64,000 bases of DNA from an uncultured Solirubrobacterales bacterium (GTDB lineage Bacteria > Actinomycetota > Thermoleophilia > Solirubrobacterales > Solirubrobacteraceae): NCBI GenBank assembly GCA_963714115.1, contig OY970232.1:3625997-3689996 (forward strand), given 5' to 3'. Each line of letters begins with the position of its first letter. Within the stretch, counting starts at the first letter, position 1. A model generated the notes under the pieces. It searched no databases and had not been told where the DNA came from. It saw nothing but the letters and a program-made list of their open reading frames with translations. Positions 26,573 through 47,804 of this stretch are shown here, in pieces. Position numbers and translations under genes: made by a program.

Positions 26573-27838
26573 CTAGATCTCGATCCGCTTGGCCTGCGAG
26601 CTGTTGAAGCGAAGCATCGCGATCCCCGCGAACACCAGCGTCATCCCCGCCAGGACGGCGGCGGGAACGAGCACGCCCGAGATCCCCTTGCCGTCGAGGA
26701 TCACGTTGTGAGCAGCCAGGAGCGCCCAGTAGCTGGGAAACGCATGTCCGATCGCCCTGATCGTCGGGGGGAGCGATGCGACGGGAGTCAGCGCGCCACC
26801 CATCGCGGCGAACACGATCAGGATCATGTTGCCGATCGCCTCGAGCTGCGCGTAGGTCTGCACCAGCGCGACGATTGCGGCGGTCATCGCCAGCACGCAC
26901 GCGATCAGCGGCACGACGACCACCAGCAGAACCAGCACCGGCCCCTTGGAGCTCATGCCGAACACCGTCAGGCCGATGACCATCGTGATCACGATCTGGG
27001 CCAGGATCAGCAGCGCTCCCGGTAGGAGCTTGCCCGTGAGGACCTGCCCGATGCTGGCCTGACTGGCACGCATCCGTTCCCACGTGTTCCACCCGTGCTC
27101 GATGAAGAACCCCCTGCCGAGCGTGATGACCCAGAGGAACATGAACATGATCATGAACCCGGGGACGGCCTGCTCGGAGCCGTTGACGTTCCTGTAGCCC
27201 TCCTGCACGAGGATGGTCTTCATCGTCGGTCGCATCACCAAAATCGACAGCACCGGGATGATGAGATAGAGGATGATCGGTCCCGGATCGCCAAGCAGCA
27301 ATTTCATGTTGTGCCCGATCAGCGCTCCGAGAGGACTGGCCGTCCGCTCCTGGACGACGCCGCTGGGCCCCTGCTCGGGATCGCCGGCTGCTCGGGCGAA
27401 CTTGGGGAAGGCGTACCCGGCGCTCACCCCGGCCTCGGAACTCGGCGCCGCCGCTTCGATGGGGGGCCCGGAGCTGAGCGTCGTCGCCTGCATCTGGGGG
27501 CGCACGCTGGTGCGCTGCGACGCAGCGTCCGCCGGTTCGGACTGCGCAGGGAGCACGCCGATCGTGGTGCCGCCGACGCTGATCGAGTCGCCCTGGCGCA
27601 GCTGACGCGGGCCGGAGATCCGCTCGCCGTTGACGTAGGTCCCGTTGGTGGAGCCAAGATCCTCGATCGTCAGAACCCCGTTCGCGCGCGTGATGCGTGC
27701 GTGGTGTCGCGAGAGTTCCTGGTCGCCGTCCAGCGTGCCCTTGCCTTCGGCCGCGCGCCCGATCACGAGCTCGGTCTCGACCTCCAACCCGGTGCCGGCG
27801 GCGCCGCCACTGGTGATTCTCATGATCTCTCGAGCCAT
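26573..27838 (-). CDS. FHA-domain + ABC-2 type exporter permease fusion
   Basis: FHA: IGRA...LSRHHARI...EDLGSTNGTYVNG; then six TM ABC-2 region with EHGWNTWERM. Confidence 0.88.
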   Translation of the reverse strand: MAREIMRITSGGAAGTGLEVETELVIGRAAEGKGTLDGDQELSRHHARITRANGVLTIEDLGSTNGTYVNGERISGPRQLRQGDSISVGGTTIGVLPAQSEPADAASQRTSVRPQMQATTLSSGPPIEAAAPSSEAGVSAGYAFPKFARAAGDPEQGPSGVVQERTASPLGALIGHNMKLLLGDPGPIILYLIIPVLSILVMRPTMKTILVQEGYRNVNGSEQAVPGFMIMFMFLWVITLGRGFFIEHGWNTWERMRASQASIGQVLTGKLLPGALLILAQIVITMVIGLTVFGMSSKGPVLVLLVVVVPLIACVLAMTAAIVALVQTYAQLEAIGNMILIVFAAMGGALTPVASLPPTIRAIGHAFPSYWALLAAHNVILDGKGISGVLVPAAVLAGMTLVFAGIAMLRFNSSQAKRIEI

Positions 27839-27843
27839 GCCGC

Positions 27844-29217
27844 CTAGCCGTCCCTCTTGCGCATCACCGTCACACCCGGACGACCGACCGTCCCCTCTGA
27901 GAGTGGCGTGAGTCCCTGCCCGGGAACGTAGGGCACGGGCTGGATCTCTGCATAGTGCCTGTTGGTGAGCGCGAGGTAGACGCTGTCGAGGCTCGGGCGA
28001 AGGACCTCGATGCTGGCAATCGGCGGCGCGTCGCGACCAATCCGGTTCAGCAGCGCCGCGGCGGCCCCCTTCGGGTCATCGGTCTCTAGGCGCAGGAGGT
28101 TGTCTTGAATCGTGAGCTCGCCGGGGAAGTCGAGCTGGGGAGCCGCGCCATCGAACCGCACCTCGACAGCGGTGCTTGCGCACTCGCGGATCAGCTCGGC
28201 GATCGATCCACGCGCGACGATCTTGCCGCCATCGAGGATCGCCACCGACGCTCCGAGCTCTTCGATCTCGGGAAGATAGTGGGTCGAGTAGCAGATCGCG
28301 CGTCCTTTCGCGGCAAGGGCCTTGACGGCCTCGAGGATCTCCTGGCGTGTGCGAATGTCGGCACCGACCGTGGGCTCGTCCAAAATCAGGAGCGGTGGGT
28401 GGTGGAGCATCGCCATGCCCGTGTGCAGCCGGCGCTTCTGACCGCCCGACAGGGTCCCCGCCCTGCGAGCGAGCATCGGTGTCAGGCTCAAGGCGTTCGC
28501 GACCTCGGTGACGCGTTGATCCACGAGCGGCTTGCCCAAGCCGTTTAGCCGGCCGAGGATGCGGAGGTTGTGCTCGACCGTCAACGTCGGATAGATCCCG
28601 AGGTCCTGGGGTGCGATCCCGAGCGCGGTCCGCGCCTTGCGAGGGTTGGCAAGCGCATCTACCCCGTTGATCCGGATCGTTCCCGCATCTGCCGTCCGCA
28701 GGCCCGCGATGATCGAAACGAGCGACGTCTTGCCCGCGCCGTTGGGCCCGAGCAGACCGACGATCTCGCCCGGCTGGATCTCGAGATCCACACCGTGCAG
28801 CACGTGGTGGTCGCCGTAGGACTTCGTGACCCCCCGCACTGACAGCACGGAACCCTCGTCGGAACGGTGGGTCTCGCTCGCCTCGCCGATCATCGCCGAG
28901 CGCAGCACGGTGCCCTGCCCCTGGGCGACGAACTCCATCACGGTGTCGCCCACTTCGATCCGATCGCCGGTTGCTAGGAACTGGGGAACCGGGATCTTCC
29001 AGCCGTTGAGGAAGGTGCCGTTCGTCGATCCCAGATCCTCGATGATCAGACCGCCTTCCGGCAGGCGCAGGATCCGCGCGTGGCGACGCGACAGCTCCAT
29101 GTCTCCACCCAGGCTGCCGTCCGTGCCGCTCTCGCGACCAATCAGCAGCTCATCGCCTATGCGCAGCTCGCTTCCCGAGGCGGGCCCGGAAAGAACTCGC
29201 AGCATTTCGCCGGCCAT
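27844..29217 (-). CDS. FHA-domain + ABC exporter ATPase fusion
   Basis: FHA (IGRE..LSRRHA..DLGSTNGT); Walker A GPNGAGKT; LSGGQ; LILDEPT; STHYL. Confidence 0.92.
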   Translation of the reverse strand: MAGEMLRVLSGPASGSELRIGDELLIGRESGTDGSLGGDMELSRRHARILRLPEGGLIIEDLGSTNGTFLNGWKIPVPQFLATGDRIEVGDTVMEFVAQGQGTVLRSAMIGEASETHRSDEGSVLSVRGVTKSYGDHHVLHGVDLEIQPGEIVGLLGPNGAGKTSLVSIIAGLRTADAGTIRINGVDALANPRKARTALGIAPQDLGIYPTLTVEHNLRILGRLNGLGKPLVDQRVTEVANALSLTPMLARRAGTLSGGQKRRLHTGMAMLHHPPLLILDEPTVGADIRTRQEILEAVKALAAKGRAICYSTHYLPEIEELGASVAILDGGKIVARGSIAELIRECASTAVEVRFDGAAPQLDFPGELTIQDNLLRLETDDPKGAAAALLNRIGRDAPPIASIEVLRPSLDSVYLALTNRHYAEIQPVPYVPGQGLTPLSEGTVGRPGVTVMRKRDG

Positions 29218-29238
29218 CGGCGATAACCCTACCCTAGC

Positions 29239-30174
29239 CTAGGCCGTCGACCCGGCGAACGCCGCCAGCTTCTCCGGCGAGTCGGCCGCGAAGACCTCCA
29301 CGTCGCTGTCGATCTGACGCACCAACCCCCCCAGCACCCGCCCGGGCCCGAGCTCGAGGACCCTCGTGCAGCCCTCCCCCACGAGTGTCTGCACGCAGTC
29401 CACCCAGAGCACCGGGCTCGCGATCTGGGCCACCAGGGCCTGGCAGACCTCCTCGCCGGTCCTGATCACGGTGCCGGAGGCGTTGGCGACCAGCGGGACC
29501 GTGGGGTCCTTCCAGGTGAGCTTGTCCATCGCCTCGGCCATCTCGCGCTGCACCGGCTCCATCAGAGCACTGTGGAAGGCGGCCGACACCTTCAGGCGCA
29601 CCGCCTTGCTGGCGCCCGCCTCCTCGGCCAGCTCGAGCAGCCGCTGCACACCCGCCTCCTCGCCGGAGACCACGGTCTGGCGGGGGCTGTTGAAGTTGGC
29701 TGGAGCCACCGTGCCCGCCTCGGCGGCCGTATCGCAAAGCGCCCGCACCTCCTCGGAGGGCAGGCCCACGATCGCGGCCATCCCGCCTGGGCGTTCCGAG
29801 CCGCAGTTGGCCATCAGCCGCCCGCGCAGCGAGACGAGCTCCATGCCATCCTCCAGGTCGAGCGCTCCCGCGGCCACCGCCGCCGTGTCCTCGCCGAGGC
29901 TGTGTCCGGCAACGAAGTCGGGCTCCAGACCCGACTCGCGCGCCAGCTCGTGGATCGCGAGCGAGAGCGCGAACAGCGCGGGCTGAGTCACATCGGTGCG
30001 GGTGAGCTCCTCGATCGGACCCTCGAGCGCGAGCTCCCGAATCGGCAGACCCGAGGCCTCGTCGGCCAGCGCGAAGTAGCGATCGAACAGCTCGGGGCGC
30101 GCCTCCAGGAGCCCTGCGCCCATGCCCACGCGCTGCGATCCCTGTCCGGGAAAAACAAATGCCGTTGCCCCCAT
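29239..30174 (-). CDS. fabD: Malonyl-CoA:ACP transacylase
   Basis: FVFPGQGSQ, TQPAL, AGHSLG, ANFNSPRQTVVSG, VSAAFHS, PVLW, ELGPG. Confidence 0.93.
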   Translation of the reverse strand: MGATAFVFPGQGSQRVGMGAGLLEARPELFDRYFALADEASGLPIRELALEGPIEELTRTDVTQPALFALSLAIHELARESGLEPDFVAGHSLGEDTAAVAAGALDLEDGMELVSLRGRLMANCGSERPGGMAAIVGLPSEEVRALCDTAAEAGTVAPANFNSPRQTVVSGEEAGVQRLLELAEEAGASKAVRLKVSAAFHSALMEPVQREMAEAMDKLTWKDPTVPLVANASGTVIRTGEEVCQALVAQIASPVLWVDCVQTLVGEGCTRVLELGPGRVLGGLVRQIDSDVEVFAADSPEKLAAFAGSTA

Positions 30175-30176
30175 GT

Positions 30177-30689
30177 TCAGTGCTCCTTGGTCGTCTCGGT
30201 GTGGATCTCGCGCAACCGGCTGGTGTCGACGTCGTAGACGAAGCCGCGCACCATGTCGCGGTGTAGCAGGAACTGAGATTGGCGGACGCGCAGGATCGAT
30301 TGGCGCACGTCGGCCTCGACGTCGGTGAAGGACTCGATCGCAAACGCCGGCGCCACGCCGGTCGCCTGCAGCAGCTCGGCGCGAAACCCGTCGTCGGTGA
30401 GTGTCTGCATGCCGCAGTTGGTGTGGTGGATCAGCATCACCTCGCGCGTGCCCAGCCGACGTTGGGAGACCGCCAACGAGCGGATCACGTCATCGCTCAC
30501 CACCCCGCCCGCGTTGCGCAGGATGTGCGCCTCGCCACCCCCCAGGCCAAGCGCCGCGAAGACGTCGATGCGGGAGTCCATGCACGTCACGATCGCCAGC
30601 CGGCGGGTCGGGCGCACGTCGAGGTGCTCGGTGGGCCTCGCCGCCGCGAATGCCTCATTGTTGGCCAGCAGCTCGTCGATCGCGTCCAT
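30177..30689 (-). CDS. Beta-class carbonic anhydrase
   Basis: IVTCMDSR, LRNAGG, IHHTNCG Zn ligands; -10-like TAGGGT 7 nt upstream (leaderless). Confidence 0.92.
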   Translation of the reverse strand: MDAIDELLANNEAFAAARPTEHLDVRPTRRLAIVTCMDSRIDVFAALGLGGGEAHILRNAGGVVSDDVIRSLAVSQRRLGTREVMLIHHTNCGMQTLTDDGFRAELLQATGVAPAFAIESFTDVEADVRQSILRVRQSQFLLHRDMVRGFVYDVDTSRLREIHTETTKEH

Positions 30690-30829
30690 CGCAGGAACCC
30701 TAGCCGGATCCAGGTAGGCTTGGCCCCTCGTGCGACTCGAGAACGTCTTTGGACATGGGCCTGCCGGTCCCCCGAAAGCCGTTCTCAGAAGGTGCTTGGC
30801 AATGGGTGGTGTTCTCAGAGGAGGGTGTC

Positions 30830-31567
30830 TTGGATCTCGGGCTTAACGGAAAGCGAGCGCTCGTCACGGGCGGCTCGCGCGGTATCGGACGTGCGCTGGT
30901 GTTGGGACTAGCCCAGGGAGGCGCCTCGGTTGGGGCCTGCTACAACCGCGAGTCCGACGACGTGGAGCGCCTGCGCGGCGAGCTGCAGCAGATCGGCGGC
31001 GCGAGCTTCCTCGCGCAGGCCGACCTCTCAGACCCCGCGTCGGCTGAGGCTTTCGTGCGCGACACCAGCGAGCGCTTCGGGGGCCTTGACATCGTCATCA
31101 ACAACGCCGGTGTGGTGAGCCACGCGATGATCGAGCAGCTCGAGCTCGAGGAGTGGCACCGGGTGATCGACACCAACCTGACCGCCGTCTACCTCGTCAG
31201 CAAGGCCGCCCTTCCCGTCATGGGAGAGGGAGGATCGATCGTCAACATCACCTCCGCGGTCGCGATGCGCGGGATGCCGGGGCGCGTGCACTACATCTCA
31301 TCCAAGGCCGGGCTGATCGGCCTGACGCGCGCCCTCTGCAAGGAGGTCGGCAAGCGCGGCATCCGCGTCAACGCGCTCGCGCCCGGCATCATCGAAACCG
31401 ACCAGACCGGCGAGCTCGACGAGGCCGGCCGCGCGCGCTACTCCGGCCTGGCGGCGCTCAACCGGCTGGGGCGCCCGGAGGAGATCGCCGACGTCGCGCT
31501 GTTCCTCGCCAGCGATCACGCGAGCTTCGTCTCCGGGGTGACGCTGAACGTGGACGGCGGGATCTGA
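30830..31567 (+). CDS. SDR ketoreductase (3-oxoacyl-ACP reductase-like)
   Basis: SD gaggagg + TTG; MDLGLNGKRALVTGGSRGIG, NNAG, YISSK. Confidence 0.9.
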   Translation: MDLGLNGKRALVTGGSRGIGRALVLGLAQGGASVGACYNRESDDVERLRGELQQIGGASFLAQADLSDPASAEAFVRDTSERFGGLDIVINNAGVVSHAMIEQLELEEWHRVIDTNLTAVYLVSKAALPVMGEGGSIVNITSAVAMRGMPGRVHYISSKAGLIGLTRALCKEVGKRGIRVNALAPGIIETDQTGELDEAGRARYSGLAALNRLGRPEEIADVALFLASDHASFVSGVTLNVDGGI

Positions 31568-31584
31568 GGGGCCAACGGCCCCTC
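31566..31584. terminator. Hairpin between convergent genes
   Basis: gaggggcc-aac-ggcccctc perfect 8-bp stem; no T tract. Confidence 0.45.
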
Positions 31585-31632
31585 CGGCGGCCGCGCGGGC
31601 CGAGACTCGGGAAGCTGACCGGGCCGCGCAGG

Positions 31633-31986
31633 CTAGGGCTTCGTGAGCCCCTCACCCGCCTCGTCCGAGGCGAACGAGCCGTTGAAGATCTCGCCCGTGA
31701 AGAGGTGAAGCTTGAAGTTCTCGGGGTCGTGGGCATCCGTGAAGAACTCCCCGAAGCGTTCGACCGCCCGCTTGTGGTACTCGGCCTCGGTGCTCGAGAG
31801 CAGCTCGTCCTCACCCTCCCAGAAGGTGATCGAGAGCGCCTTGCCCGACTCGGGGTCCACCAGCGAGAGCGCGCCCTTGAACCCCTCGCGCGCCATCGTG
31901 ACCGGTAGGACGTTCTCGTACCACAGTTTGAGGCCCTCCTGCACCCGTCCCTCGGGCGCCTGAACGTGGGTCACGCGACAGAACAC
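31633..31986 (-). CDS. ABM-like dimeric alpha/beta-barrel protein (paralog A)
   Basis: MFCRVTHVQ...AREGFKGALSL.D...GKALSITFWE; SD aaggggg. Confidence 0.8.
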   Translation of the reverse strand: MFCRVTHVQAPEGRVQEGLKLWYENVLPVTMAREGFKGALSLVDPESGKALSITFWEGEDELLSSTEAEYHKRAVERFGEFFTDAHDPENFKLHLFTGEIFNGSFASDEAGEGLTKP

Positions 31987-32035
31987 ATGCTCCCCCTTGT
32001 GTACGGGTTGGACGAGGTTGAAGCTCGCGCGGATC

Positions 32036-32395
32036 CTAGCGCTCCGCCGGTGGGGTTGCGATGCCCTCGCCCGCGTCGTCGGCTGCGTAGGCGCCGTTGA
32101 AGATCTCTCCGGCGAGGAGATGCAACTGCATGTTCTCGGGCTCGGGAGCGTTCGCGAAGAACTCCCCGAAGCGCTGGATCGCCTGCTCGTGGTACTCGGC
32201 CTCTTCCTGCGCCGCGTCCTCGCCCTCCCAAAGGCTGATCAGGAGCGCTTTGCCCGTGTCGAAGTCGGCCAGCGAGAGCGCGCCCTTGAACCCCTCGCGC
32301 GCCTGCATCGTCGGCAGGACGTTCTCCCGCCACAGTTCGAGGCCCTCATGCACCCGTCCCGCGGGCGCCTGGACATGGGTCACGCGACAGAACAC
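32036..32395 (-). CDS. ABM-like dimeric alpha/beta-barrel protein (paralog B)
   Basis: GTG at 32395; clearly homologous over its full length to 31633..31986. Confidence 0.8.
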   Translation of the reverse strand: MFCRVTHVQAPAGRVHEGLELWRENVLPTMQAREGFKGALSLADFDTGKALLISLWEGEDAAQEEAEYHEQAIQRFGEFFANAPEPENMQLHLLAGEIFNGAYAADDAGEGIATPPAER

Positions 32396-32498
32396 CTGCT
32401 CTCCGCTTCGTGGGCTGGACCGGATCGAGCTCGCGTCGATCCTAGACCATGGTGGGCGGGACCATCGGCGGCGAGCGCCGGCATGTAGGATCCCAGCG

Positions 32499-32858
32499 GT
32501 GGTGCGCGCGACCCTGCACATGACGGTCAAGGAGGGCCGCGGGCCGGACTTCGAACGGGCGTGGCAGGCGATCGCCGAGCAGGTCCGCACCGTCCCCGGG
32601 AACGTCCGCCAGACGCTCGCTCGCGACCCCGAGGACACCGACAGCTTCGTGGTGACCAGCGACTGGAGCAGCAGGGAGGTGTTCGGGGAGTTCGAGCGCA
32701 GCCCCGAGCAGGACGAGCTGACGGCGCCGCTGCGCGAGCTGCGCTCCTCGGCGCGCATGACAGTGCACGACGTACTCATCGACATAGAGGGTGGCGCAGG
32801 CGGCCGACCCCCGGCGAGCCGGGACCCTCTTCTTCAATCCGACGGAGGGGCGAGCTGA
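32499..32858 (+). CDS. Antibiotic biosynthesis monooxygenase (ABM) family protein
   Basis: VKEGRGPDFERAW...PGNVRQTL.RD...FVVTSDW..RE.F..FE; TAGGAT -10 7 nt upstream of GTG. Confidence 0.82.
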   Translation: MVRATLHMTVKEGRGPDFERAWQAIAEQVRTVPGNVRQTLARDPEDTDSFVVTSDWSSREVFGEFERSPEQDELTAPLRELRSSARMTVHDVLIDIEGGAGGRPPASRDPLLQSDGGAS

Positions 32859-33185
32859 ATGGCCGCACGTGTGATGGTTTTCGCCAAGATCAACCGTGAG
32901 GACGCCGATGCGTTCGAGACGGCGTATGCGCAGGTCACCGCCAACGTGAAAGGCACCGCCGGGCACATCGGCGACGAGCTGCTGCGACGCCGCGAGCCGA
33001 CGGACCCCGAGGGGGAGCCTCTCAGCTACATCCTGCTCAGCGAGTGGGAGAGCAAGGAGGCGTTCCTGGCGTGGGAGGAGTCGCTCGCCCATGTCGCCAA
33101 GCGCTCGCCGATGCACCCCTACTGGGCGGGGACCAACGAGCGGATCATCTACGACGTCGCCCACACGATCAAGCCAACTGCCTGA
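32859..33185 (+). CDS. ABM family protein
   Basis: AFETAY......GTAGHIGDELLR...YILLSEWESKEAFLAWE. Confidence 0.82.
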   Translation: MAARVMVFAKINREDADAFETAYAQVTANVKGTAGHIGDELLRRREPTDPEGEPLSYILLSEWESKEAFLAWEESLAHVAKRSPMHPYWAGTNERIIYDVAHTIKPTA

Positions 33186-33194
33186 GGGGATCTC

Positions 33195-33491
33195 ATGTAC
33201 GCGCGAGTCAACACCACCGAGTGGAACCCCGAGAAAGTCGACGCCGGCATGGAGCTGACGGAGGAGAAGATCATCCCCGCCTACCAAGAGCACCCGGGCT
33301 TTCGCGGCTACATCCTGCTGACCGAGCCCGACGGCGGTCCCCACGCGATCGCGATCACGCTGTGGGACAGTGAGGAGACCAGGGATTCGAGCGCCGGGAT
33401 CGCCCGCGCGATGGTTGGGGAGCTCAAGGACATCCTCCAGGCACCACCCAAAACCGACCACTACGACGTTCGCTTCTACGTGCAGGACTAG
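33195..33491 (+). CDS. ABM-like protein
   Basis: MYARV...[15 protein letters not shown]......[11 protein letters not shown]. Confidence 0.75.
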
Positions 33492-33506
33492 GGAAAGGGG
33501 AGTGTG

Positions 33507-33878
33507 ATGGCGCAGTACTGGGCGCTCATGTGGGACATCAAGCCGGGATCGCAGGACGCGGTTCGCCAGGCCTTCAAGGAATACGGTCGTCCCGATCACA
33601 CCGTCCGCGACGAGGAGGGCAACGACGTCGGAACACTGCTCAGCACGCAGGTGTTCATGAAGGGCAACACTGTGGTCAGGGTGGTCGAGACGACCGACGA
33701 CGTGCCGCTGCCGGTGCTCGGCCAGCACATGGGGCGCCAGCCGGCGATCCGCGAGCTGGAGGACAAGCTCGACGAGCTCGTGGCCGAGCCCCGCGACATG
33801 TCCACCAGCGAGGGCGCGCGGGAGTTCTTCATGAAGAGCACGATGGAGCTGCTGGTCACGCGGCGGCACGACGAATGA
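33507..33878 (+). CDS. SchA/CurD-like domain protein (WhiE ORF I type)
   Basis: [10 protein letters not shown]...F..Y..PDH......[19 protein letters not shown]...[11 protein letters not shown]....PRD. Confidence 0.85.
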
Positions 33879-34786
33879 GCGCGGGGCCACCGTCCGGCCC
33901 GCCGGGGGGGCCGCCCGGACCGGGGGGGCAGTCGGGCCCGCCAGGGGGGCTATCCGGACCGCCCGGAGGACCGCCCGGCCCGCCGATCGTGGTCGACGAG
34001 CAGCGCGCGGCCGACTTCGCGTCCCTGTTTCGCCTCGACGGCCGGCGCGTGATCCTGGTCGGCGGCTACGGCGGCATCGGCGAGGTCACCACCCGCCTGT
34101 TCGCGGAGTGCGGCGCCGAGCTGATGATCGCGGGACGCTCCCAGGAGAAGGCGCAGGCGCTCGCCGAGGAGCTCACCGGGGCGGGGCACGTCGCGCACGG
34201 CACGCGCGTGGACATCTCCAGCCGCGCGAGCGCACGCGAGCTGGTCGAGCAGTGCCGGCGCGAGCTGGGCGGGGTTGACGTGCTCGTGAACCTCGCCGGG
34301 ATCGACATCGAGGCGCCGGCGGAGCGCTTCGAGGAGGAGGCGTGGGACTCGCTCCTCGGGATCAACCTCTCGGGCGCCTTCTGGCTCTCCCAGGCGGCCG
34401 GCGAGGCGATGATCGACTCCGGACGCGGGGGACGCATCGTGCACTACTCGACCACCCGCAGCGTCGCGGGCGCGCGTCGGGGCTTCGCTGGGTACGCCGC
34501 CAGCAAGGCCGGTCTCAACGGCCTCATCCGCCAGCTCGCCACGGAGTGGGGCAGGCACCGCATCACCGTCAACGGGGTCGCGCCGGGGTTCGTCCCCACC
34601 GAGCTCGTGCGCGAGGCCGCCGCCGATGATAGGTTCGTCGCGATGATGCTCGGGCGGATCCCCTTCGGGCGCTTCGGCGAGCCGGTCGAGCTGGCGAGCG
34701 CGACGCTGTTCCTCGCCTCCCCCGCGGCGAGCTTCATCACCGGGCAGGTCCTGTTTGTCGACGGCGGCGTGACCGCGAGCTCTTAG
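33875..34786 (+). CDS. SDR oxidoreductase with N-terminal GPPG low-complexity tract
   Basis: ATGA overlap; [32 protein letters not shown]. Confidence 0.88.
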
Positions 34787-34787
34787 C

Positions 34788-35741: not shown

Positions 35742-35796
35742 TCGCCGAAGGCCGGAGTGGCACCGTTGGGGCCATTGAGACTCGCGGAGCCACCTC

Positions 35797-36879
35797 GTGA
35801 TCATCGACGTCCACGGCCACATCACGCATCCCGAGCTGTTCAAGCGCTACCCGATGCCCCCCGCGCTGGCTGACATCGAGGGGATGCTCGACCGCAAGTC
35901 CCAGGCGGGGATCGACCTGACGATCGTCGGCAGCCCGGTGGGTTTCGGGACGATGAGCAAGCGCGGCCACGACAACTACGCGCAGTCGGCCGATGAGCTG
36001 AAGTCGTTTCACGAGTGGCTCGCCGAGACGGTGCGCAAGCACGCTCCGCGGTTGGCCGCCTACGCCTACACCAACCCGTTCGGTGACGAGGAGCTGCTCG
36101 AGCAGACCGTGCGGACCGTGAAGGACGGGGGGTTCGTCGGGCTGATCGTCAACACCAGTGTGGGCGGCGAGTATCTCGACTCGCCACGCGCCGACCAGTT
36201 CTTCGCGATGGCGGCCGAGCTCGGCAAGCCGGTCTTCCTGCACCCCCCCGCCGAGCCCGTCGGCAGCGAGCGCATCGAGGACTTCCGCTTGGTCGAGCAG
36301 GTCGGTCGGTTCATGGACGTCACGGTTGGCTTGGCGACGCTCGTGTTCTCGGGCCGGCTGGAGGAGCACCCCGACCTCGATGTCATCGCGGCCACGGCCG
36401 GTGGCGCGATCTCGCTGCTCGCGGGGCGCATGGATCAGGCCTACCAGCCGCGCCACTGGGGCGCCGGTGGCCCTCCCGGCGGTGGGCCTCCAGGCGGGCC
36501 TCCAGGCGGGCCTCCCGGTGGGCCTCCCGGCGGTGGCCCTCCCGGCGGGCCTCCCAGCGGTGGTCCGGCCAGCGGTGGCCCCGGTGGTGGCCCTCCCGGC
36601 GGCGGACCGCCGCCCATGGCCCAGTACACCAACAAGATCACCCAGCCCCCGAGTACCTATCTGCGGCGCGTGTACGTCGACACCGCCAACTCCAGCGTGC
36701 CCAACCACCTCGCCAACCTGGAGTTGATGGGTGCCGGTCGCATGCTGTTCGGCACCGACTCGCCGCCCCTGGCGACGCCACTGCAGGACGCGATCGCGAT
36801 GGTCGACGGTCTACCTATCTCAGCCGCCGAGAAGCAGGGCATCCTGGAGGACAATGCGCGGCGGCTGTTCGGGCTGTGA
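35797..36879 (+). CDS. Amidohydrolase-2 family protein (ACMSD/aromatic decarboxylase-like) with internal GGPP tract
   Basis: IIDVHGH, PVFLHP, VYVDT, MLFGTDSP, NARRLFGL. Confidence 0.88.
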   Translation: MIIDVHGHITHPELFKRYPMPPALADIEGMLDRKSQAGIDLTIVGSPVGFGTMSKRGHDNYAQSADELKSFHEWLAETVRKHAPRLAAYAYTNPFGDEELLEQTVRTVKDGGFVGLIVNTSVGGEYLDSPRADQFFAMAAELGKPVFLHPPAEPVGSERIEDFRLVEQVGRFMDVTVGLATLVFSGRLEEHPDLDVIAATAGGAISLLAGRMDQAYQPRHWGAGGPPGGGPPGGPPGGPPGGPPGGGPPGGPPSGGPASGGPGGGPPGGGPPPMAQYTNKITQPPSTYLRRVYVDTANSSVPNHLANLELMGAGRMLFGTDSPPLATPLQDAIAMVDGLPISAAEKQGILEDNARRLFGL

Positions 36880-36884
36880 TGTAG

Positions 36885-37388
36885 TCAGAATACGAGCAGG
36901 GCGATCACGACGATAATCGCGATCACCAGCGCGATCAGCAGCAGCGGCACGAGTATCACGACGGGACGCCGGGCTCGCGGCGGAAGCTTGATGAGGAGCG
37001 GCAGCAGGCGCATCCCCGTCGGAGATTTCATCAGCAGACGGACGGGCAGCGGTATGGTCGGGGGAGGACCGCCGGCCGGAGGGCTGGGAGGATCCTCAGC
37101 CGGGGGATCGGCAACCTCCGCTGGCTTGGGAGGTATCACGGTGCGATCCGACGCCTCCACCGGCGTGGGACGGATCACAGTACGGTCCGATGCCTCCTCC
37201 ACCGGCCTGGGTCGGATCACAGTGCGATCCGACGCCTCCACCGGCGTGGGACGGATCACAGTGCGGTCCGATACGTCCTCCCCCAGCCTGGGGCGGATCA
37301 CAGTGCGATCCGACGCCTCCACCGGCGTGGGGCGGATCACGGTGCGGTCCGACGCGTCCTCCACTGGGGGTTGTTCGCCATCGGCCAT
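36885..37388 (-). CDS. Small C-terminally membrane-anchored protein with six SDRTVI(R/P)P repeats
   Basis: ATG 37388; the repeats stay in frame (39/42-bp units); Pro-rich linker; terminal hydrophobic helix VVILVPLLLIALVIAIIVVIALLVF preceded by basic residues. Confidence 0.7.
   Translation of the reverse strand: MADGEQPPVEDASDRTVIRPTPVEASDRTVIRPRLGEDVSDRTVIRPTPVEASDRTVIRPRPVEEASDRTVIRPTPVEASDRTVIPPKPAEVADPPAEDPPSPPAGGPPPTIPLPVRLLMKSPTGMRLLPLLIKLPPRARRPVVILVPLLLIALVIAIIVVIALLVF
37129..37358 (-). repeat. Six tandem units, alternating 39 and 42 bp
   Basis: Core ggatcacRgtRcgRtccga recurs six times on the + strand. Confidence 0.92.
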
Positions 37389-37467
37389 GCTGAGTGGCAG
37401 CCTAGTGGTGCGACGAGGCGGCGTCAACTGCGCGGCAGTTGCTCGACCGCGTGCGCGAGACCACCGC

Positions 37468-38856
37468 TCATCCCGGCGGGGTGGCTGCGGCTGAATCGGG
37501 CGCCTCGGTCGCTCCGGCGTCGCTCGCCACACCGGCCTGCTCGTACACCGGCCAGCGGTACTGACGCTGGCGGCGGGCGTTCAGCGCGATGAGCCCACCG
37601 AACTCAGCGAGCAGCGCTCGCCGGTCGCACCCGGGCCGGGCGAAGGCCCGTCCCATCGCGGCGGCGAGGCGCGGCGGAGTGATGACCTGCGAGGGCTTCC
37701 CGCGGTGGCTGAAGAGGTTGATCAACGGCACCAATTCGCCCCGGGCAAGCAGCCGCTTGCCAACCTCGGGAAGCGCGGTGGGCGCTCTGCCCGCTTTGCC
37801 GATGTCGGTCGCCAGCCAGTAGTGCCCGATCGCATCGTCGTTGCGCCAGCGGCCCCACTCCACGAGCGCCTGGTCGAGTTCCCGATCGGAGCCCCCCAGG
37901 CCGCGGACGATCGGCTCGACGAGCTCCTCGCCCTGCCTGAATGCGTCCCCGATCCCCTGGCCCGCGGCGGGATCCTTGAAGTGACCGGCATCGCCGAGCA
38001 GCACCCAGCCGGCGCCGGAGGCCTCTCGGAAGAACCCCTGCCAGCGCAGCATCCCGAACATCTTTCCCACTCGGCGCGCCCCCGCGAGCGCCTCGGCCAC
38101 CGGTTGGCAGCTGTGGACGTGCTCGGTGTAGCTGCCCTCGAGGTCCTCCCGGTAGCGCGGGAGCTCGCTCAGCTCGGGCATCACCACCACCTGATACAGC
38201 CCGCTGTCCGACGGCGAGGCGATCACGAACCGCTCGCCCCAGCGATGCAGGACGAACGCCGGATCGGGGCCCGGCTCGGCGCCCTCGAAGAACGACCAGT
38301 AGGCGAACCGCTCGTTCCAGACCACGTTGTACTTGCGTGCCCCAACGCTGCTGGCGACCGTCGAGTTGCGACCGTCGGCGCCCACTACCAGTCGCGCCTG
38401 CAGGGTGCTCTGCGAGCCATCCTGCTTGACCCGCACGCCGGTCACCCTCCCGCCCTCCTTCACCACGCCCGTCACAGTCGCCCCCATGCGCATCTCAGCC
38501 CCAGCCTCGGCCGCGGCTTCGGCGAGGATCGGGTCGAGCATCAGGCGGCGCACCGACCTGAGCCCCCCGGCATCGCCTGGCTGCTGGGGGGTCGGCGCCT
38601 GAAATTGGAAGTCTTCGATGCGGAGGCTCACCATCCCCAGGCATGGCGCGCCGGTCGCCTGCAGCTTCTCCGTCACTCCGAGACGCTCCAGGGAGGCGAG
38701 CGCCTGGGCCTGGAAGAAGTGGGTTGAGAGCGTGTCGCGGGGGAACCTCGCCTTCTCCACCACCGCGACGCGCAGGCCTCGGCGCGCGAGCAGCGCCGCC
38801 AGCGGCGAGCCCGCGCAACGCGCGCCGACTACGACGACGTCGAAGCGCTCAGCGAT
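37468..38856 (-). CDS. FAD-dependent oxidoreductase (geranylgeranyl-reductase/hydroxylase-like); apparent non-canonical ATC start
   Basis: (I)AERFDVVVVGARCAG Rossmann motif, VGADGRNS, LLGDAGHFKDP..GQGI. An in-frame TGA at 38875-38877 leaves no ATG/GTG/TTG before the Rossmann motif. Confidence 0.8.
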   Translation of the reverse strand: MAERFDVVVVGARCAGSPLAALLARRGLRVAVVEKARFPRDTLSTHFFQAQALASLERLGVTEKLQATGAPCLGMVSLRIEDFQFQAPTPQQPGDAGGLRSVRRLMLDPILAEAAAEAGAEMRMGATVTGVVKEGGRVTGVRVKQDGSQSTLQARLVVGADGRNSTVASSVGARKYNVVWNERFAYWSFFEGAEPGPDPAFVLHRWGERFVIASPSDSGLYQVVVMPELSELPRYREDLEGSYTEHVHSCQPVAEALAGARRVGKMFGMLRWQGFFREASGAGWVLLGDAGHFKDPAAGQGIGDAFRQGEELVEPIVRGLGGSDRELDQALVEWGRWRNDDAIGHYWLATDIGKAGRAPTALPEVGKRLLARGELVPLINLFSHRGKPSQVITPPRLAAAMGRAFARPGCDRRALLAEFGGLIALNARRQRQYRWPVYEQAGVASDAGATEAPDSAAATPPG

Positions 38857-38937
38857 GCGAGCCTCGCAGACGGCTCACGGAACATGGGCTCACAGTCGGC
38901 ATCCCGCATGACCTGCTCGCAGGACGTCCGCGCATCT

Positions 38938-40803
38938 CTACGCGGGAGGACCGCCGAGGCCCGGGGGTGGGCCGCCGAGGCCCGGAGGCGGGCCACCGAC
39001 ACCTGGGGGCGGACCACCCGCGCCGGGCGGGCCACCAACACCTGGAGGCGGGCCACCCGCAAACGCCAGCGAGGAGTCCCACAGGCCGTCGATCCCCACG
39101 ACCATCCCGCGGGCCTGCTCGATCGTCAAACCGGGCTCCTCGAACAGGCCGTCCGCCTCCCAGCGCTTGGGATCGAGGCTCAGGGCGTAGGGGTTGATCG
39201 GCCGATCGGTCGGGGGTCCCTCCGGCAGCGCCTGCGCGGCCTGGTTGAAGATCGCGACCGCCAACGCCTCCGAGTTGCGCACGTTGGCGCGCAACTCCTC
39301 CAGCAGCGACTCGTCGTCGGGGTACTCCCTGACGAGGCCGACGAGCCCCGCGACCAGCAGCGGGAAGGTGGCGAGCATGCCCGGGTCGCGCGGCTTGCGC
39401 TCGAGCTCGTGCCATTCGCGAAACAGCTTGTGCATGTTGATGTTCAACTTGAAGAGCCGATTCATGTACTCGTCGGCGCGCCTCATGAAGTCGATGTCGG
39501 TGAACCTGTTCTGCGTGAACAGCAGCACGTTCCCGGTGTGGTTGGAGTAGAAATCCCAGGTCAGCAGACCGCACAGCACCCAGGTGTTGCCGAAGACCGG
39601 GTAGGAGTCGCGATAGCGGGAGATGACGTGCTCGAAGAGGCGCTGGTAGAGGTCGTTGTAGTAGTCGACGCGCTCGCCGATCGCCTCGCCGTTCAGGTCG
39701 CGCGTCACGAGATCGGCGGTGAAGGTGTTGCTGTAGCCGATGAAGTCCGAGCCGGGGGAGTAGAAGGGGTCGGCGAACGCTCCCGCCTCCCCCACGAGCG
39801 CCCAGCGGTCGGTCGAGAACATCTGCTTGACCCCGTAGGCGAAGTCTTTGACGCGGAGGAAGTCCTCGATGTCCTGGGGGCGCTCTTCGATCGATGCGGC
39901 GAGCTGCGGCTCGTGCTCGCGCAGCCACCCGAGCAGGCCCTCGAGCTCGTTGATCTCCTCGTAGGGGTGAAAGCGGGGGTCGGCGCACACGCCGATGCTG
40001 ATCGGCCCCGTGGAGAGCGGGATCATCCACACCCAGTACCCCTCCCCCATCAGGTGATTGGTGCTGAACTGGCGGATGCCCGGCTGGGACATCTGCGCCA
40101 TCCACTCAGTGTCATCGGCGCCCCACTGCTCGAGATCGAGCCCCCCTCCAAGTCGCAGCCACGAGGAGTTGATGTGGTGCCCGCAGTCGGCCATCAGGTC
40201 GAGCTTGCGCTTGAGGATGCTGGCGCGGCCCGCGGCGTCCACGACCCAGCGCGCCGTGAGCGTCGCCTCGCGCTCGAACTGCTCGAAGGTCACGCGGTGG
40301 GGATCGCTGTCGAGATCGACCTCCCGCACCCGCGCGCCCTGCTGCAGGTCCACCCCGAGCGCCCGCGCGCGCGCCGCGAGCTTGTTCTCGAAGAGGCCCC
40401 GATCGAGCTGGAAGTTGTCGTGCGGCGGGTACACCGGGGGCCCGGCCTCGACCCGCTTGGTGATGTCCTCGTTGCCGTCCGCGGGCGGGAAGTAGCGCAG
40501 CCCGCACTTGATGATCTGTTCGGAGCGCAGATGCTCCTCCATCCCGACGACCTCGGCGAAGTAGTGGGCGCCGGAGGGGACGGTGGACTCGCCCACCTTG
40601 AACGCCGCCAGCGGCGCCGGCCCCTCGCGCTTCTCGAGCACCACCACCGCCGTCTCGGGCCGCATCTGCTTGAGCTGGATCGCCAGCGTGAGGCCCGCCA
40701 AGCCGCCCCCGAGAATCGCGACGTCGTAGTGCTCCTGCGGCGGGCGCACCGCCGCGAACTCCACAATTGAATCGCCCCGTTCGATGCTCACGCCGGGCGC
40801 CAT
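38938..40803 (-). CDS. Flavin-dependent halogenase with C-terminal GGPPPG tract
   Basis: ILGGGLAG, KVGEST, IIKCG (candidate catalytic Lys), VVDAAGR, YWVWMIP (WxWxIP), GEAGAFADPFYSPG; ATG 1 nt after the upstream stop. Confidence 0.85.
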   Translation of the reverse strand: MAPGVSIERGDSIVEFAAVRPPQEHYDVAILGGGLAGLTLAIQLKQMRPETAVVVLEKREGPAPLAAFKVGESTVPSGAHYFAEVVGMEEHLRSEQIIKCGLRYFPPADGNEDITKRVEAGPPVYPPHDNFQLDRGLFENKLAARARALGVDLQQGARVREVDLDSDPHRVTFEQFEREATLTARWVVDAAGRASILKRKLDLMADCGHHINSSWLRLGGGLDLEQWGADDTEWMAQMSQPGIRQFSTNHLMGEGYWVWMIPLSTGPISIGVCADPRFHPYEEINELEGLLGWLREHEPQLAASIEERPQDIEDFLRVKDFAYGVKQMFSTDRWALVGEAGAFADPFYSPGSDFIGYSNTFTADLVTRDLNGEAIGERVDYYNDLYQRLFEHVISRYRDSYPVFGNTWVLCGLLTWDFYSNHTGNVLLFTQNRFTDIDFMRRADEYMNRLFKLNINMHKLFREWHELERKPRDPGMLATFPLLVAGLVGLVREYPDDESLLEELRANVRNSEALAVAIFNQAAQALPEGPPTDRPINPYALSLDPKRWEADGLFEEPGLTIEQARGMVVGIDGLWDSSLAFAGGPPPGVGGPPGAGGPPPGVGGPPPGLGGPPPGLGGPPA

Positions 40804-40804
40804 C

Positions 40805-41104
40805 CTATACGACCACACCGTCACGCACGTGGAAGCTCGAGCGGCTGGCCTGCGCGAAGCAGGCCCGCAGCGGTGCCAGCAGGCGGGCGTGATCCTCCGA
40901 GGCGTCCCAGGCGCCGGAGCGCTCGATGCTCTCCCACTCGCTGATCACCAGCCAGCGCTCGCCATCCTCGCTTGACTCGCAGAGCTGATGGCCGATCAGC
41001 CCCGGCTCCTGCGCTGCGCGCGCCCGCAGCGCGGCGTAGGCACTCAACAGCTCATCGCGGGAACCGGGCTTGATGCGAACGTCGACGACGAGCCTTACGC
41101 TCAT
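40805..41104 (-). CDS. ABM family protein
   Basis: VRIKPGSRDEL..AY......EPGLIGHQLC......WLVISEWES. Confidence 0.82.
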   Translation of the reverse strand: MSVRLVVDVRIKPGSRDELLSAYAALRARAAQEPGLIGHQLCESSEDGERWLVISEWESIERSGAWDASEDHARLLAPLRACFAQASRSSFHVRDGVVV

Positions 41105-41433
41105 GCCTCGGTCGGTGGGTCCCAGCTATAGAACTCCCGCGCCTGGGCGTCCTTCGGAGAGCGCCATGTCTCGGGGTTGTACGGGGTTATATATGAATCC
41201 AGTTGGGCGCTGATCTCCTTGAACAGGTCGTGATTGCGCACCTTCTCGACGGCGTCGGCGAACTCGTCGTCGGTCTCCACCAGGTGGATGTAGATGTCGT
41301 CGAGCACGAACAGGCTGCGGTGCCTGACCCCGGTGATCCGCGGCAGCTCGGTCTCATCGGACTCGGCGAAGATCCGCGCGACCTCCTCCTCGGCTCCGGG
41401 CTTGATCCGGGCGACGATCACACCTCGCTTGAT
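41101..41433 (-). CDS. TcmI/WhiE-VII-type polyketide cyclase; start probably ATC 41433 (GTG 41421 alternative)
   Basis: IVARIKPG..EEVARIFAESD.TELP...GV..RSLF...DIYIHL...F.EIS..L..YI.PY.P.TWRSP.DA.A.EFY.W. Confidence 0.9.
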   Translation of the reverse strand: MKRGVIVARIKPGAEEEVARIFAESDETELPRITGVRHRSLFVLDDIYIHLVETDDEFADAVEKVRNHDLFKEISAQLDSYITPYNPETWRSPKDAQAREFYSWDPPTEA

Positions 41434-41506
41434 GATGGCCTGCTCCTTTCGCCCGGTTGCCAGTTACTCCGCGACCGGAGCATATATTGTCCACGCGCGA
41501 GCCGCC

Positions 41507-42274
41507 ATGTCACGCCGACGACTGCTGATCATCTCCCGCCATCAGGCAAAGCTGCTGCTCGGCAACCCGGGGGCGCTCGTGATCTTCGTGATCATCCCGC
41601 TGCTGACGATGGTCATCATGAAGTCCACGCAGAAGTCGGCGCTGCTCGGGGCCGGCTACCGCCATGTCAACGGAGCCGAGCAGGCCGTGCCGGGGTTCAC
41701 GGTGATGTTCGCGTTCTTCTGGCTGGTGTTCGTCGGGCGCACGTTCTTCGCCGAGCACGCCTGGGGCACGTGGGACCGCCTGCAGATGATGGCCAGCACG
41801 ACCGAGGTCATCATCGGCAAGCTGCTGCCCTCGTTCGTCGTGATCACCATCCAGATGATCGCGCTGTTCGCGATCGGCGACCTCGTGCTCGGCATGAACT
41901 CGAAGGGCTCGATGGTGACGCTCGTGATCCTCGCGCCGACATTGGCGATCTGCGTATTGGCGCTGACGTTCGCGCTGGTCTCGTTCTGCTCCACGATGAG
42001 CCAGATGGACGCCTCCTCCAACCTGCTGATGCTGGTGTTCGCCTCGCTCGGGGGGGCGCTCGCGCTGACCACGGCGCTGCCACAGTGGGCGCAGACCATC
42101 TCGCCCGCGATCCCCAGCCACTGGGCGATGCAGGCGTCGACCGACGTGATCCTCAAGGGCGACGGGTTCGGCGCGGTGATCGGACCCGTGGGCGTGCTGC
42201 TGGGTTTCGCCGCTCTCTTCGCCGCCCTCGCCGCGATCCGCTTCCGCCCGACCGACCACAAGCTGGTCTCGTGA
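41507..42274 (+). CDS. ABC-2 type exporter permease (no FHA domain)
   Basis: Six TM segments; GAEQAVPGF, EHAWGTWDRL; paralogous to the permease part of 26573..27838. Confidence 0.88.
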   Translation: MSRRRLLIISRHQAKLLLGNPGALVIFVIIPLLTMVIMKSTQKSALLGAGYRHVNGAEQAVPGFTVMFAFFWLVFVGRTFFAEHAWGTWDRLQMMASTTEVIIGKLLPSFVVITIQMIALFAIGDLVLGMNSKGSMVTLVILAPTLAICVLALTFALVSFCSTMSQMDASSNLLMLVFASLGGALALTTALPQWAQTISPAIPSHWAMQASTDVILKGDGFGAVIGPVGVLLGFAALFAALAAIRFRPTDHKLVS

Positions 42275-42314
42275 GCGCGAGCAGGCCAACCACCCGGCAA
42301 ACAGCGGTTCTCCC

Positions 42315-43715
42315 ATGAGCGCGGGCGAGCAGCTGCGCGTGATCGCCGGGCCGGCTGCCGGCACCGACATCCCGCTCGGGCACGACGTCTCGATCGGACG
42401 CGCCGCGCAGGGACCGGGCGCCCTCGGCGGGGACGAGGAGCTTTCTCGCAACCACGCGCGCATCGTGCTGCGCGGCGACGGCGCCTACGTGCTCGAGGAT
42501 CTCGGCTCGACCAACGGCACCTACCTGAACGGCTGGCGGATACCCGCCTCGCAGCTGCTCAGCGCCGGCGATCGCATCCAGGTCGGCCAGACGGTGCTCG
42601 AGGTCGTGCTGCCGGGAGACTCCCAGCGCACCGTGATGCGCCGGCGGCCGGTGATCCTGGCCGGCTCCCCCGACGCGGAGGAGCTGCGCACCCCGCGCTC
42701 GCAGGCGACCCTCTACGTGAGTGGCGTGCGCAAGTCCTACGGGGACTTCGAGGTTCTGAAGGGAGTTGACCTCGAGATCGAACCGGGCGAGGTCGCCGGC
42801 CTGCTCGGCCACAACGGCGCGGGCAAGACGACCTTCGTCTCGTGCGTCGCCGGGTTGCGGCGGGCGGACTCCGGCACGATCCTCGTCAATGGCGTCGACG
42901 CGACCGCCGACCCGCTGAAGGCGCGCCAGCACCTGGGGATCGCCCCGCAGGATCTCGGCATCTACCCGACGCTCACGGTACGCGGCAACCTCGAGCTGTT
43001 CGGCGAGCTCGGCGGGCTGCGGGGGCGCGAGGTCGCAAAGCGCGCCGAGGAAGTGGGGGAGGCGCTCAGCCTCACGCCCAAGTTCGATGCCCACGCGGGC
43101 ACGCTCTCCGGCGGCCAGCAGCGGCGCCTGCACACCGGCATGGCGATCGTCTGCAAGCCGGCGCTGCTGATCCTCGACGAGCCGACCGTCGGCGCCGACA
43201 TCCGCACCCGCCAGGAGATCCTCGATCTCGTCAAAGGGCTCGCCGAGGAGGGGCACGCGATCTGCTATTCGACCCACTACCTCCCCGAGATCGAGCAGCT
43301 CGGCGCCTCGGTGGCGCTGCTCCAGGGCGGCGCGATCATCGCCCGCGGATCGATCGCCGAGCTCGTCGCGATGAACTCCACCCAGGTCGTGGAACTCACC
43401 TTCGACGGGCCAGCGCCCGAGATCTCCGTGCGCGGTGGGAAGGTCGTGTGCGAGGGCTCCGTGCTGCGCATCTCGACCGACAACGCCGCGGAGATGGCCG
43501 CCGCCGCACTCGGTCAGCTCGGCGGCAACGCGATGCGGCTGCGCAACATCGAATTGGTGAGGCCGAGCCTCGACAGCATCTACCTGACCCTCACCGAACA
43601 GCGCTACTCGAGCGAGGAGCCGGACGCTCGAGGCGAGGAGGGCGGCGACGGCGCCCCCCAGGTCATGGCGCGGGCCGCGCTGCAGAACACCGGGTTGAAC
43701 TTCAGGCAGCCGTAG
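42315..43715 (+). CDS. FHA-domain + ABC exporter ATPase fusion (paralog of 27844..29217)
   Basis: FHA IGRA..LSRNHA..DLGSTNGT; GHNGAGKT; LSGGQ; LILDEPT. Confidence 0.92.
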   Translation: MSAGEQLRVIAGPAAGTDIPLGHDVSIGRAAQGPGALGGDEELSRNHARIVLRGDGAYVLEDLGSTNGTYLNGWRIPASQLLSAGDRIQVGQTVLEVVLPGDSQRTVMRRRPVILAGSPDAEELRTPRSQATLYVSGVRKSYGDFEVLKGVDLEIEPGEVAGLLGHNGAGKTTFVSCVAGLRRADSGTILVNGVDATADPLKARQHLGIAPQDLGIYPTLTVRGNLELFGELGGLRGREVAKRAEEVGEALSLTPKFDAHAGTLSGGQQRRLHTGMAIVCKPALLILDEPTVGADIRTRQEILDLVKGLAEEGHAICYSTHYLPEIEQLGASVALLQGGAIIARGSIAELVAMNSTQVVELTFDGPAPEISVRGGKVVCEGSVLRISTDNAAEMAAAALGQLGGNAMRLRNIELVRPSLDSIYLTLTEQRYSSEEPDARGEEGGDGAPQVMARAALQNTGLNFRQP

Positions 43716-47803: not shown

Positions 47804-47804
47804 C

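Follow-up and report, generated by a model that had tools for sequence, protein, structure and literature searches.

A tail-anchored threonine-repeat protein and FHA-armed exporters in a Solirubrobacterales type II polyketide cluster: a candidate phosphothreonine circuit

We describe a small gene at 36885-37388 (-) in a 64,000-nt stretch of DNA from an uncultured Solirubrobacterales bacterium (contig OY970232.1, positions 3,625,997 to 3,689,996; the whole stretch is called the window below). The gene lies in a type II polyketide synthase cluster and encodes a tail-anchored protein that consists mostly of six (A/V)SDRTVI(R/P)P units. Its conservation identifies it as a real gene, and a similar Thr motif stands in the linker of an FHA-bearing ATP-binding cassette (ABC) ATPase encoded in the same cluster. 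We put the probability that its product is a kinase-written, multivalent phosphothreonine (pThr) tether or regulator of FHA-armed exporters at about 0.5.

RESULTS

The repeat gene and its product

Related proteins occur with an N-terminal FHA domain (type A) and without one (type B). The elements of the repeat gene in the window are:

36885-37388 (-): repeat gene, 167-aa tail-anchored, largely disordered protein of the FHA-less type B; homologs share its tail and motifs
37128-37355 (-): six tandem (A/V)SDRTVI(R/P)P units, proposed phospho-acceptor and FHA-ligand motifs (Tandem Repeats Finder)
37329-37355, 37290-37316, 37248-37274, 37209-37235, 37167-37193 and 37128-37154 (-): the individual units
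36963-37061 (-): conserved juxtamembrane segment PTIPLPVRLLMKSPTGMRLLPLLIKLPPRARRP, two short predicted helices, with many invariant columns in the family alignment A1
36888-36962 (-): predicted C-terminal transmembrane helix (tail anchor), from the AlphaFold2 model of the homolog P0011
37399-37427 (-): promoter of the repeat gene, with -35 TTGACG at 37427-37422, a 17-nt spacer and -10 TAGGCT at 37404-37399

The repeats have a period of 39 bp and 6.1 copies according to Tandem Repeats Finder; the units are spaced 13-14 residues (39-42 bp) apart, with 81-91% similarity between copies in their DNA sequence. The open reading frame (ORF) has a GC content at third codon positions (GC3) of 0.77 and matched no family in Pfam (FHA included) or NCBIfam. 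How rare is such a motif in this organism? As background we used 3,180 GC3-filtered ORFs (1.01 million residues) of the window's own genome, in which T-x-[VILM]-R-P has a frequency of 5.15 per 100,000 residues. At this frequency ~0.009 occurrences are expected in 167 residues, and five were observed in the repeat ORF. The looser pattern [DNQ][RK]T[VSA][VILM][RP] matched six of the 3,180 ORFs, two of them in the linkers of FHA-ABC proteins and four within folded domains.

In the AlphaFold2 model of the type A homolog P0011 (23-row family alignment), the FHA domain was moderately confident and the motif region was disordered. Helices were predicted at residues 234-241 and 243-254 (short, juxtamembrane) and at 257-286 (the membrane helix, with a predicted local distance difference test score, pLDDT, of 85-98). 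Predicted disorder of the motif region is as expected for linear motifs. Because a basic cluster precedes the C-terminal helix on its N-terminal side, the sequence implies that the N-terminal part of the repeat protein faces the cytoplasm.

A family with and without an FHA domain

A search of 5.8 billion proteins yielded 22 relatives, all but one of them type A proteins of 244-287 aa, and a one-genome-per-species scan gave 14 loci. Type A is the form of most family members. Type A proteins start with the FHA domain, followed by a linker with 3-6 motifs (for example DPQRTVLRK, DPNRTVIRSRP and VDKTVVRNV), a Gly-Pro tract and a tail like that of the window ORF. This shared tail, PLPVRLLMKSPxGxRLLPLLIKLPPRARRP followed by a hydrophobic helix, is better conserved in alignment A1 than any other part of these proteins; the window ORF carries it as PLPVRLLMKSP...RLLPLLIKLPPRARRP with the transmembrane helix, in columns that are invariant or nearly so across the 23 sequences. 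The FHA domain is absent in type B (the window ORF, L001 and L030-L036), where 3-6 SDRT(V/A)(I/M/V)R units are present per protein, and is found in the other members. L037 retains the tail only, and some divergent relatives keep T-V-x-R alone. The 97-aa start assigned to P0001 by the gene caller was discarded as an artefact, as the L001 ORF begins earlier, at MSDGEKPP, and contains five motifs.

The start of type B (M-A-D-G-E-Q-P-P-V) aligns with the residues right before the second type A motif, and the promoter is common to both types. On these two grounds the alignment shows type B to be derived from the FHA-bearing form by in-frame loss of the FHA domain together with the first motif.

All related loci come from metagenome-assembled genomes of uncultured Solirubrobacterales/Solirubrobacteraceae. 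A HMMER search of 1.84 billion representative proteins returned ~8 true relatives, the remaining matches being unrelated repeat proteins, and an order-wide search of 301 sampled genomes with the family profile was dominated by generic FHA matches, with the tail matched in the window's own genome only. For the FHA part of the type A members, and also for the FHA-bearing permease described below, the best NCBIfam match was FhaB/FipA (63-72 bits against a cut-off of 125); the OdhI profile matched the FHA domain only and far under its cut-off.

The order-wide search also brought out a larger group of tail-anchored FHA proteins (L005-L010), which have T-x-L-R-P linkers and a different tail (SRSWVPVALSYG...). 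One of them, L008 (G125:C5, ~782-785 kb), has four EPIADPDRTAMRPRP repeats, and a gene for an FHA-Ser/Thr kinase comes directly after its own.

Conservation of the repeat gene

We asked whether the repeat ORF is a real gene. In the eight-codon core the six copies vary synonymously at the Asp, Arg, Thr, Ile and Arg codons, and the last copy has the sole replacement, a Pro for Arg. Across 43 type B units from nine genomes, Thr(0) was found in 43/43 and was encoded by four codons (ACC 19, ACG 11, ACA 8, ACT 5). The surrounding core was nearly as constant (Ser-3 42/43, Asp-2 41/43, Arg-1 42/43, Val+1 36/43, Ile+2 32/43, Arg+3 39/43), and the residues between the cores were variable. Upstream, TTGAC is invariant and the TA and T of the -10 element are conserved in 15 aligned loci that include both family types. 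Only 10 nt separate TAGGCT from the ATG, and this arrangement implies that the repeat gene has a promoter of its own and would be transcribed into a leaderless or near-leaderless mRNA. A strict TATAAT (sigma-70) scan did not call this promoter, the call being based on conservation.

Thus, given the synonymous differences between the copies, the invariant Thr with its four codons and the promoter conserved in 15 loci, the comparison identifies the repeat ORF as a real gene with its own conserved promoter and with protein-level selection acting on the motif. Could the ORF instead be a decaying remnant, left after deletion of the FHA domain from a type A gene, with repeats that are recent and functionless products of DNA slippage? 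The missing FHA domain and the likeness of the copies in DNA would fit such a history, but the FHA-less form persists in nine genomes at ~72% DNA identity with an open reading frame, and selection on it is purifying. This explanation is largely refuted, and we consider it highly improbable; a pseudogene was rejected on the same retention in nine genomes, the conservation of the 43 units and the conserved promoter.

FHA-bearing exporter subunits in the same cluster

Two DrrAB-like ABC-2 exporters are encoded within the polyketide cluster:

26573-27838 (-): FHA-permease (ABC-2), with Pfam FHA at 27572-27766 (68.6 bits), ABC2_membrane, and the linker motif ASQRTSVRP at 27497-27523
27844-29217 (-): ATPase1, FHA-bearing DrrA-like ABC ATPase, with FHA at 28948-29145 (54.7 bits) and the weak motif QGTVLRS at 28897-28917
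41507-42274 (+): second permease, ABC-2 (DrrB-like), partner of ATPase2, with Pfam ABC2_membrane; its start was set by comparison with the L001 ortholog
42315-43715 (+): ATPase2, FHA-bearing DrrA-like ABC ATPase, with FHA at 42387-42587 (58.7 bits), ABC_tran, and the linker motif DSQRTVMRR at 42618-42644

All three FHA domains are N-terminal and score well above the Pfam gathering cut-off (PF00498, 20.7 bits); no FHA domain was found by Pfam in the second permease. In both ATPases the FHA domain (residues 25-91) precedes ABC_tran (140-291), so that it is N-terminal to the exporter ATPase. The pThr-binding loops Gly-Arg, Ser-x-x-His and Asn-Gly, read from the translations, are intact in all three domains (IGR...LSRHHARI...STNGT, IGR...LSRRHARI...STNGT and IGR...LSRNHARI...STNGT). 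The best NCBIfam matches were drrA and drrB (the DrrAB subfamily profiles TIGR01188 and TIGR01247), all below the curated cut-offs: drrA reached 225 bits, in ATPase2, against 312, and drrB reached 41.7 and 22.1 bits against 223.

An alignment of 10 ATPase2 sequences showed that Q104, T106 and R109 of the linker are invariant. For the first exporter (ATPase1 and the FHA-permease), a full ortholog was present solely in G301, the closest relative, among the five relatives searched (92% identity in the FHA-permease). We considered whether the FHA domain of type A had been relocated onto the window permease and rejected this, as the permease FHA shares 50-54 identities with the FHA domains of the ATPases and with that of a 242-aa FHA protein encoded past the window end, against 39 with the type A FHA.

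The initial annotation of this DNA had proposed N-terminal FHA domains in two ATPases and one permease and six motif copies on a membrane-anchored ORF, and both proposals hold. The three linker motifs that it listed are also present: DSQRTVMRR lies exactly where it was placed, and the positions given for ASQRTSVRP and QGTVLRS were off by one base.

Co-occurrence of the repeat family and ATPase2

The family is located in the same polyketide cluster at every locus with readable gene content. Of the 17 relative loci fetched, 12 have an ATPase2 ortholog no more than 10 kb from the tail gene; these correspond to 11 distinct places, since L002 and L026 are on the same contig. The loci listed with an ATPase2 ortholog are L001, L002, L025, L026, L028, L029, L030-L035 and L037, and its linker reads D(P/S)QRT(V/M/A)MRRRPVILA in all but L029, where the ORF ends before the linker. 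The contigs of L024 and L036 are short, in L027 a partner permease is 8 kb off, at the edge of the fetched DNA, and in L003 no FHA-ATPase was found within the flanks of the tail gene.

Some of these loci contain additional FHA proteins. At type A loci (L002 14221-15945 (-); L025, L028 and L029) there is an extra ABC ATPase in which AVQRTRVKQ separates two tandem FHA domains, a layout that is the nearest to Rv1747; a permease and an additional 282-aa membrane protein come after it. In the type A locus L003 (12154-13790 (-)) a 222-aa FHA protein, the counterpart of the 242-aa FHA protein, adjoins a rhomboid protease gene.

Candidate kinases

The genome encodes eight FHA domains and seven Ser/Thr kinases. 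No Ser/Thr kinase is encoded in the 64-kb window, as had been noted before; the nearest one starts 0.5 kb beyond its end. There we observed a signalling island (C1:3690453-3713232, 0.5-23 kb past the window end) with three Ser/Thr kinases (one with GAF), a membrane adenylate cyclase and the 242-aa FHA protein. The three kinases begin 0.5 to 10 kb past the window end. One of them, a receptor kinase (C1:3700316-3702451, 37 kb from the repeat gene), has TTRLRP right after its kinase domain, in the juxtamembrane linker, and is the sole one of the seven kinases with a TRLRP-type motif. Its orthologs were found in 5/5 relatives searched (74-99% identity), with DATRLRP kept while other linker residues drift, and they always share a contig with the tail gene, at a distance of ~25-35 kb as estimated from coordinates. 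Because of this conserved motif and the linkage to the tail gene in five relatives, the receptor kinase is the best candidate for the kinase that would write the pThr sites.

The Arg at +3 and the FHA loop

The motif combines hydrophobic residues at +1 and +2 with Arg at +3. In all FHA domains of the cluster a Glu precedes the conserved Ser by two residues (E-L/M-S-R-x-H). The equivalent position in Rad53 FHA1 is Arg83, which selects Asp at +3 (PMC4037201), and by analogy a charge-reversed pairing of the FHA Glu with Arg+3 is plausible. Among the FHA ORFs fetched here, a T-x-hydrophobic-R linker was found in 25/45 of those with Glu or Asp at Ser-2 versus 1/10 of the others. The specificity rule suggested by these data is that Glu at Ser-2 reads Arg at +3.

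The polyketide cluster

The genome behind the window is 3.75 Mb in a single contig, with ~70% GC. According to Pfam and gene content, the polyketide cluster spans ~19-53 kb of the window, and the co-presence of KS-alpha, chain-length factor (CLF), acyl carrier protein (ACP) and aromatase/cyclases marks it as type II:

50826-52118 (-): KS-alpha ketoacyl-synthase
49474-50730 (-): CLF (second ketoacyl-synthase gene)
45602-45862 (-): ACP, PP-binding
45128-45598 (-): aromatase/cyclase, Polyketide_cyc
41101-41421 (-): TcmI-type cyclase
29239-30174 (-): malonyl transferase

The cluster also encodes parts of an acetyl-CoA carboxylase, several ABM monooxygenases, a SchA/CurD protein, flavin adenine dinucleotide (FAD) monooxygenases, a halogenase-like flavoenzyme, an amidohydrolase and a ketoreductase. 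One FAD monooxygenase ORF (37468-38763 (-)), read from an ATG, GTG or TTG start, is without the N-terminal dinucleotide-binding part, and its Pfam match starts at profile position 29. Two tailoring enzymes, the amidohydrolase and the halogenase-like flavoenzyme (35797-36879 (+) and 38938-40824 (-)), have long Gly-Pro (GGPP-type) tracts, internal in the former and C-terminal in the latter; they are kept in the clusters of four relatives (L001, L002, L030 and L031), and L003 is without them. A tract of this kind also stands directly ahead of the juxtamembrane helices in the tail-anchored family. Three cyclic-nucleotide components stand in or beside the cluster (22822-23685, 45911-47998 and 52594-53223), and suggest cNMP control of the polyketide pathway. 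One is a PNPOx fusion with a cyclic nucleotide monophosphate (cNMP)-binding domain, another a cNMP-binding patatin encoded between the CLF and ACP genes, and the third a class III nucleotide cyclase.

DISCUSSION

What could the repeat protein do? In the reading that we favour, at a probability of about one half, expression of the gene would give a cytoplasm-facing, tail-anchored and intrinsically disordered protein whose six SDRTVIRP units act as short linear motifs. A Ser/Thr kinase, for which the syntenic TRLRP receptor kinase is the candidate, would phosphorylate the invariant Thr of the repeats and that of the ATPase linker, and the FHA domains of the DrrAB-like polyketide exporters would bind the resulting pThr sites. 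The tail-anchored array would then be a phosphorylation-switched membrane tether or regulator of export, and the whole an Rv1747-like FHA/pThr control circuit split among separate polypeptides. The tethering or regulatory role would follow from the binding of the phosphorylated repeats by the exporter FHA domains, with the ATPase linker carrying the same Q-R-T-x-M-R motif. The motif is tied physically to FHA in type A, where the arrays follow the FHA domain in one polypeptide, and this is in agreement with such a role, as is the wider tail-anchored FHA class with T-x-L-R-P linkers, in which one gene is followed by that for an FHA-kinase. The initial annotation had put forward the same idea of a multivalent pThr partner. 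It gains from the FHA fusion in relatives, the company of the exporters in the cluster, the Thr conserved in 43/43 units, the intact pThr pockets and the Glu loop, and it loses from a third exporter motif that is not conserved, a kinase outside the cluster and AlphaFold2 models that give no docking information.

Several observations weigh against the favoured reading. The conservation of the exporter motifs is uneven: in G301 the ATPase1 stretch reads QASALRS, with Ser in place of Thr, and the permease motif reads ASQRTSVSP, with the +3 Arg lost. QGTVLRS in ATPase1 is therefore probably a chance match and the permease motif is only partly conserved. No kinase (HRDxKPxN motif) or phosphatase was found within 10 kb of the tail gene at any of 18 loci, and the kinase linkage at 25-37 kb may reflect just the shared ancestry of close genomes. 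No motif was docked onto the FHA domain in the P0011 model, in which only the tail helices are confident, and the AlphaFold2 model of ATPase2 (10-row alignment) had a mean pLDDT of 44.6, at which linker docking is not readable. Kinases and FHA domains of mycobacteria have a preference for hydrophobic residues at +3 and +5 (PMC3138270), and the earlier caution that Arg at +3 is not classic stands. The correlation of the FHA Glu with Arg comes from related, non-independent sequences and is only a hint. Finally, the likeness between the motifs of the tail protein and of the ATPase linker could have been inherited from a common FHA-plus-linker module rather than kept for cross-binding.

This last point belongs to a broader explanation, in which the functional part is the juxtamembrane helices with the transmembrane tail, for example as a small accessory subunit of a membrane protein encoded in the cluster, such as the ABC-2 exporter, and the Thr repeats are a disordered spacer that resembles the ATPase linker by common descent, without phospho-dependent cross-binding. 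The tail is indeed the most conserved part of the family with its many invariant columns, it stands alone in L037, the repeat number ranges from 3 to 6 and the cluster is without a kinase. Against this, a plain spacer would not hold S-D-R-T-V-I-R near-invariant, with Thr in four codons, while the residues between the cores vary, and the motif is retained in divergent members and in the ATPase linker; we consider this explanation unlikely, though worth keeping in view. Somewhat more doubtful is that the repeats are a decoy or sink, not a dock, which would buffer a kinase or phosphatase or compete with the pThr of the exporter linker for FHA and thereby relieve or impose auto-regulation, leaving the pumps unclustered. 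The window form, having no FHA domain of its own, can be bound and never bind, the same motif in the ATPase linker makes competition possible, and intramolecular FHA-pThr switches of the GarA/OdhI type provide a precedent; membrane anchoring beside the pumps and the FHA-bearing ancestral form suit a scaffold better. A dock and a sink cannot be told apart by sequence alone.

A more elaborate version of the tether that we favour would join the separate observations into one scaffold. The receptor kinase would write 3-6 pThr sites, these would cross-link the exporter FHA domains into clusters, the GGPP tracts would draw late biosynthetic steps to the site of export, and Glu(Ser-2)/Arg+3 would define a new charge-reversed class of FHA domains. 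The assembly would resemble an Rv1747-type condensate, with scaffold and clients as separate proteins; as a whole we regard it as a long shot.

The cluster-specific family of tail-anchored Thr-repeat proteins, in FHA-bearing and FHA-less forms, appears to be new, as do the motif shared with an exporter linker, the type II polyketide cluster setting and the possible Glu/Arg+3 specificity; a full-text search within one literature library returned nothing that links FHA domains with type II polyketide clusters. The cargo of the FHA-armed exporters is likely the cluster's own polyketide. If the favoured reading is correct, Ser/Thr kinase signalling would gate antibiotic export or self-resistance, and a simple peptide/FHA pair would be at hand for studies of binding, clustering and engineering. 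Even if FHA domains do not bind the motifs, the family still stands as a small, conserved membrane protein that is confined to one unexplored polyketide cluster of the Solirubrobacterales.

How does this arrangement compare with known systems? As in daunorubicin-type DrrAB, a two-component ABC-2 exporter is encoded in an aromatic polyketide cluster, and to our knowledge classical DrrA has no FHA domain. GarA/OdhI have an N-terminal ETTS phospho-switch in a disordered arm, which is bound by the adjacent FHA domain once phosphorylated. Type A members likewise combine FHA with a short Thr motif, but GarA/OdhI are soluble metabolic regulators with one motif, whereas the present family is membrane-anchored with 3-6 motifs, and its window form is without an FHA domain. 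Type A also resembles FhaB/FipA (Rv0019c), which acts in the context of cell division, in being a small membrane-tethered actinobacterial FHA protein; the membrane helix is at the opposite end, and FhaB/FipA is without Thr repeats.

The closest parallel is Rv1747/PknF of Mycobacterium tuberculosis. Rv1747 is likewise an ABC exporter; its FHA module is cytoplasmic and N-terminal, and Thr sites lie in a disordered linker. The FHA domains of Rv1747 bind phosphorylated Thr residues of the linker and thereby up-regulate the transporter (PMC3138270, PMC8339232), and phase separation of its regulatory module has been discussed in reviews (PMC9312465). While Rv1747 has two tandem FHA domains with the phospho-acceptor linker between them in one polypeptide, the window has one FHA domain per subunit, ATPase and permease are separate, one permease is FHA-armed and the Thr array is carried by a tail-anchored protein of its own. 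The genes lie in a type II polyketide cluster, no kinase is encoded in the operon or cluster, and Arg replaces the hydrophobic residue at +3. Rv1747, a pathogen protein whose substrate is not known, is essentially the only ABC exporter for which FHA/pThr control has been worked out. The cluster described here would be a second such system, one in which sister lineages carry the FHA reader and the Thr-array ligand either on one protein or on separate proteins.

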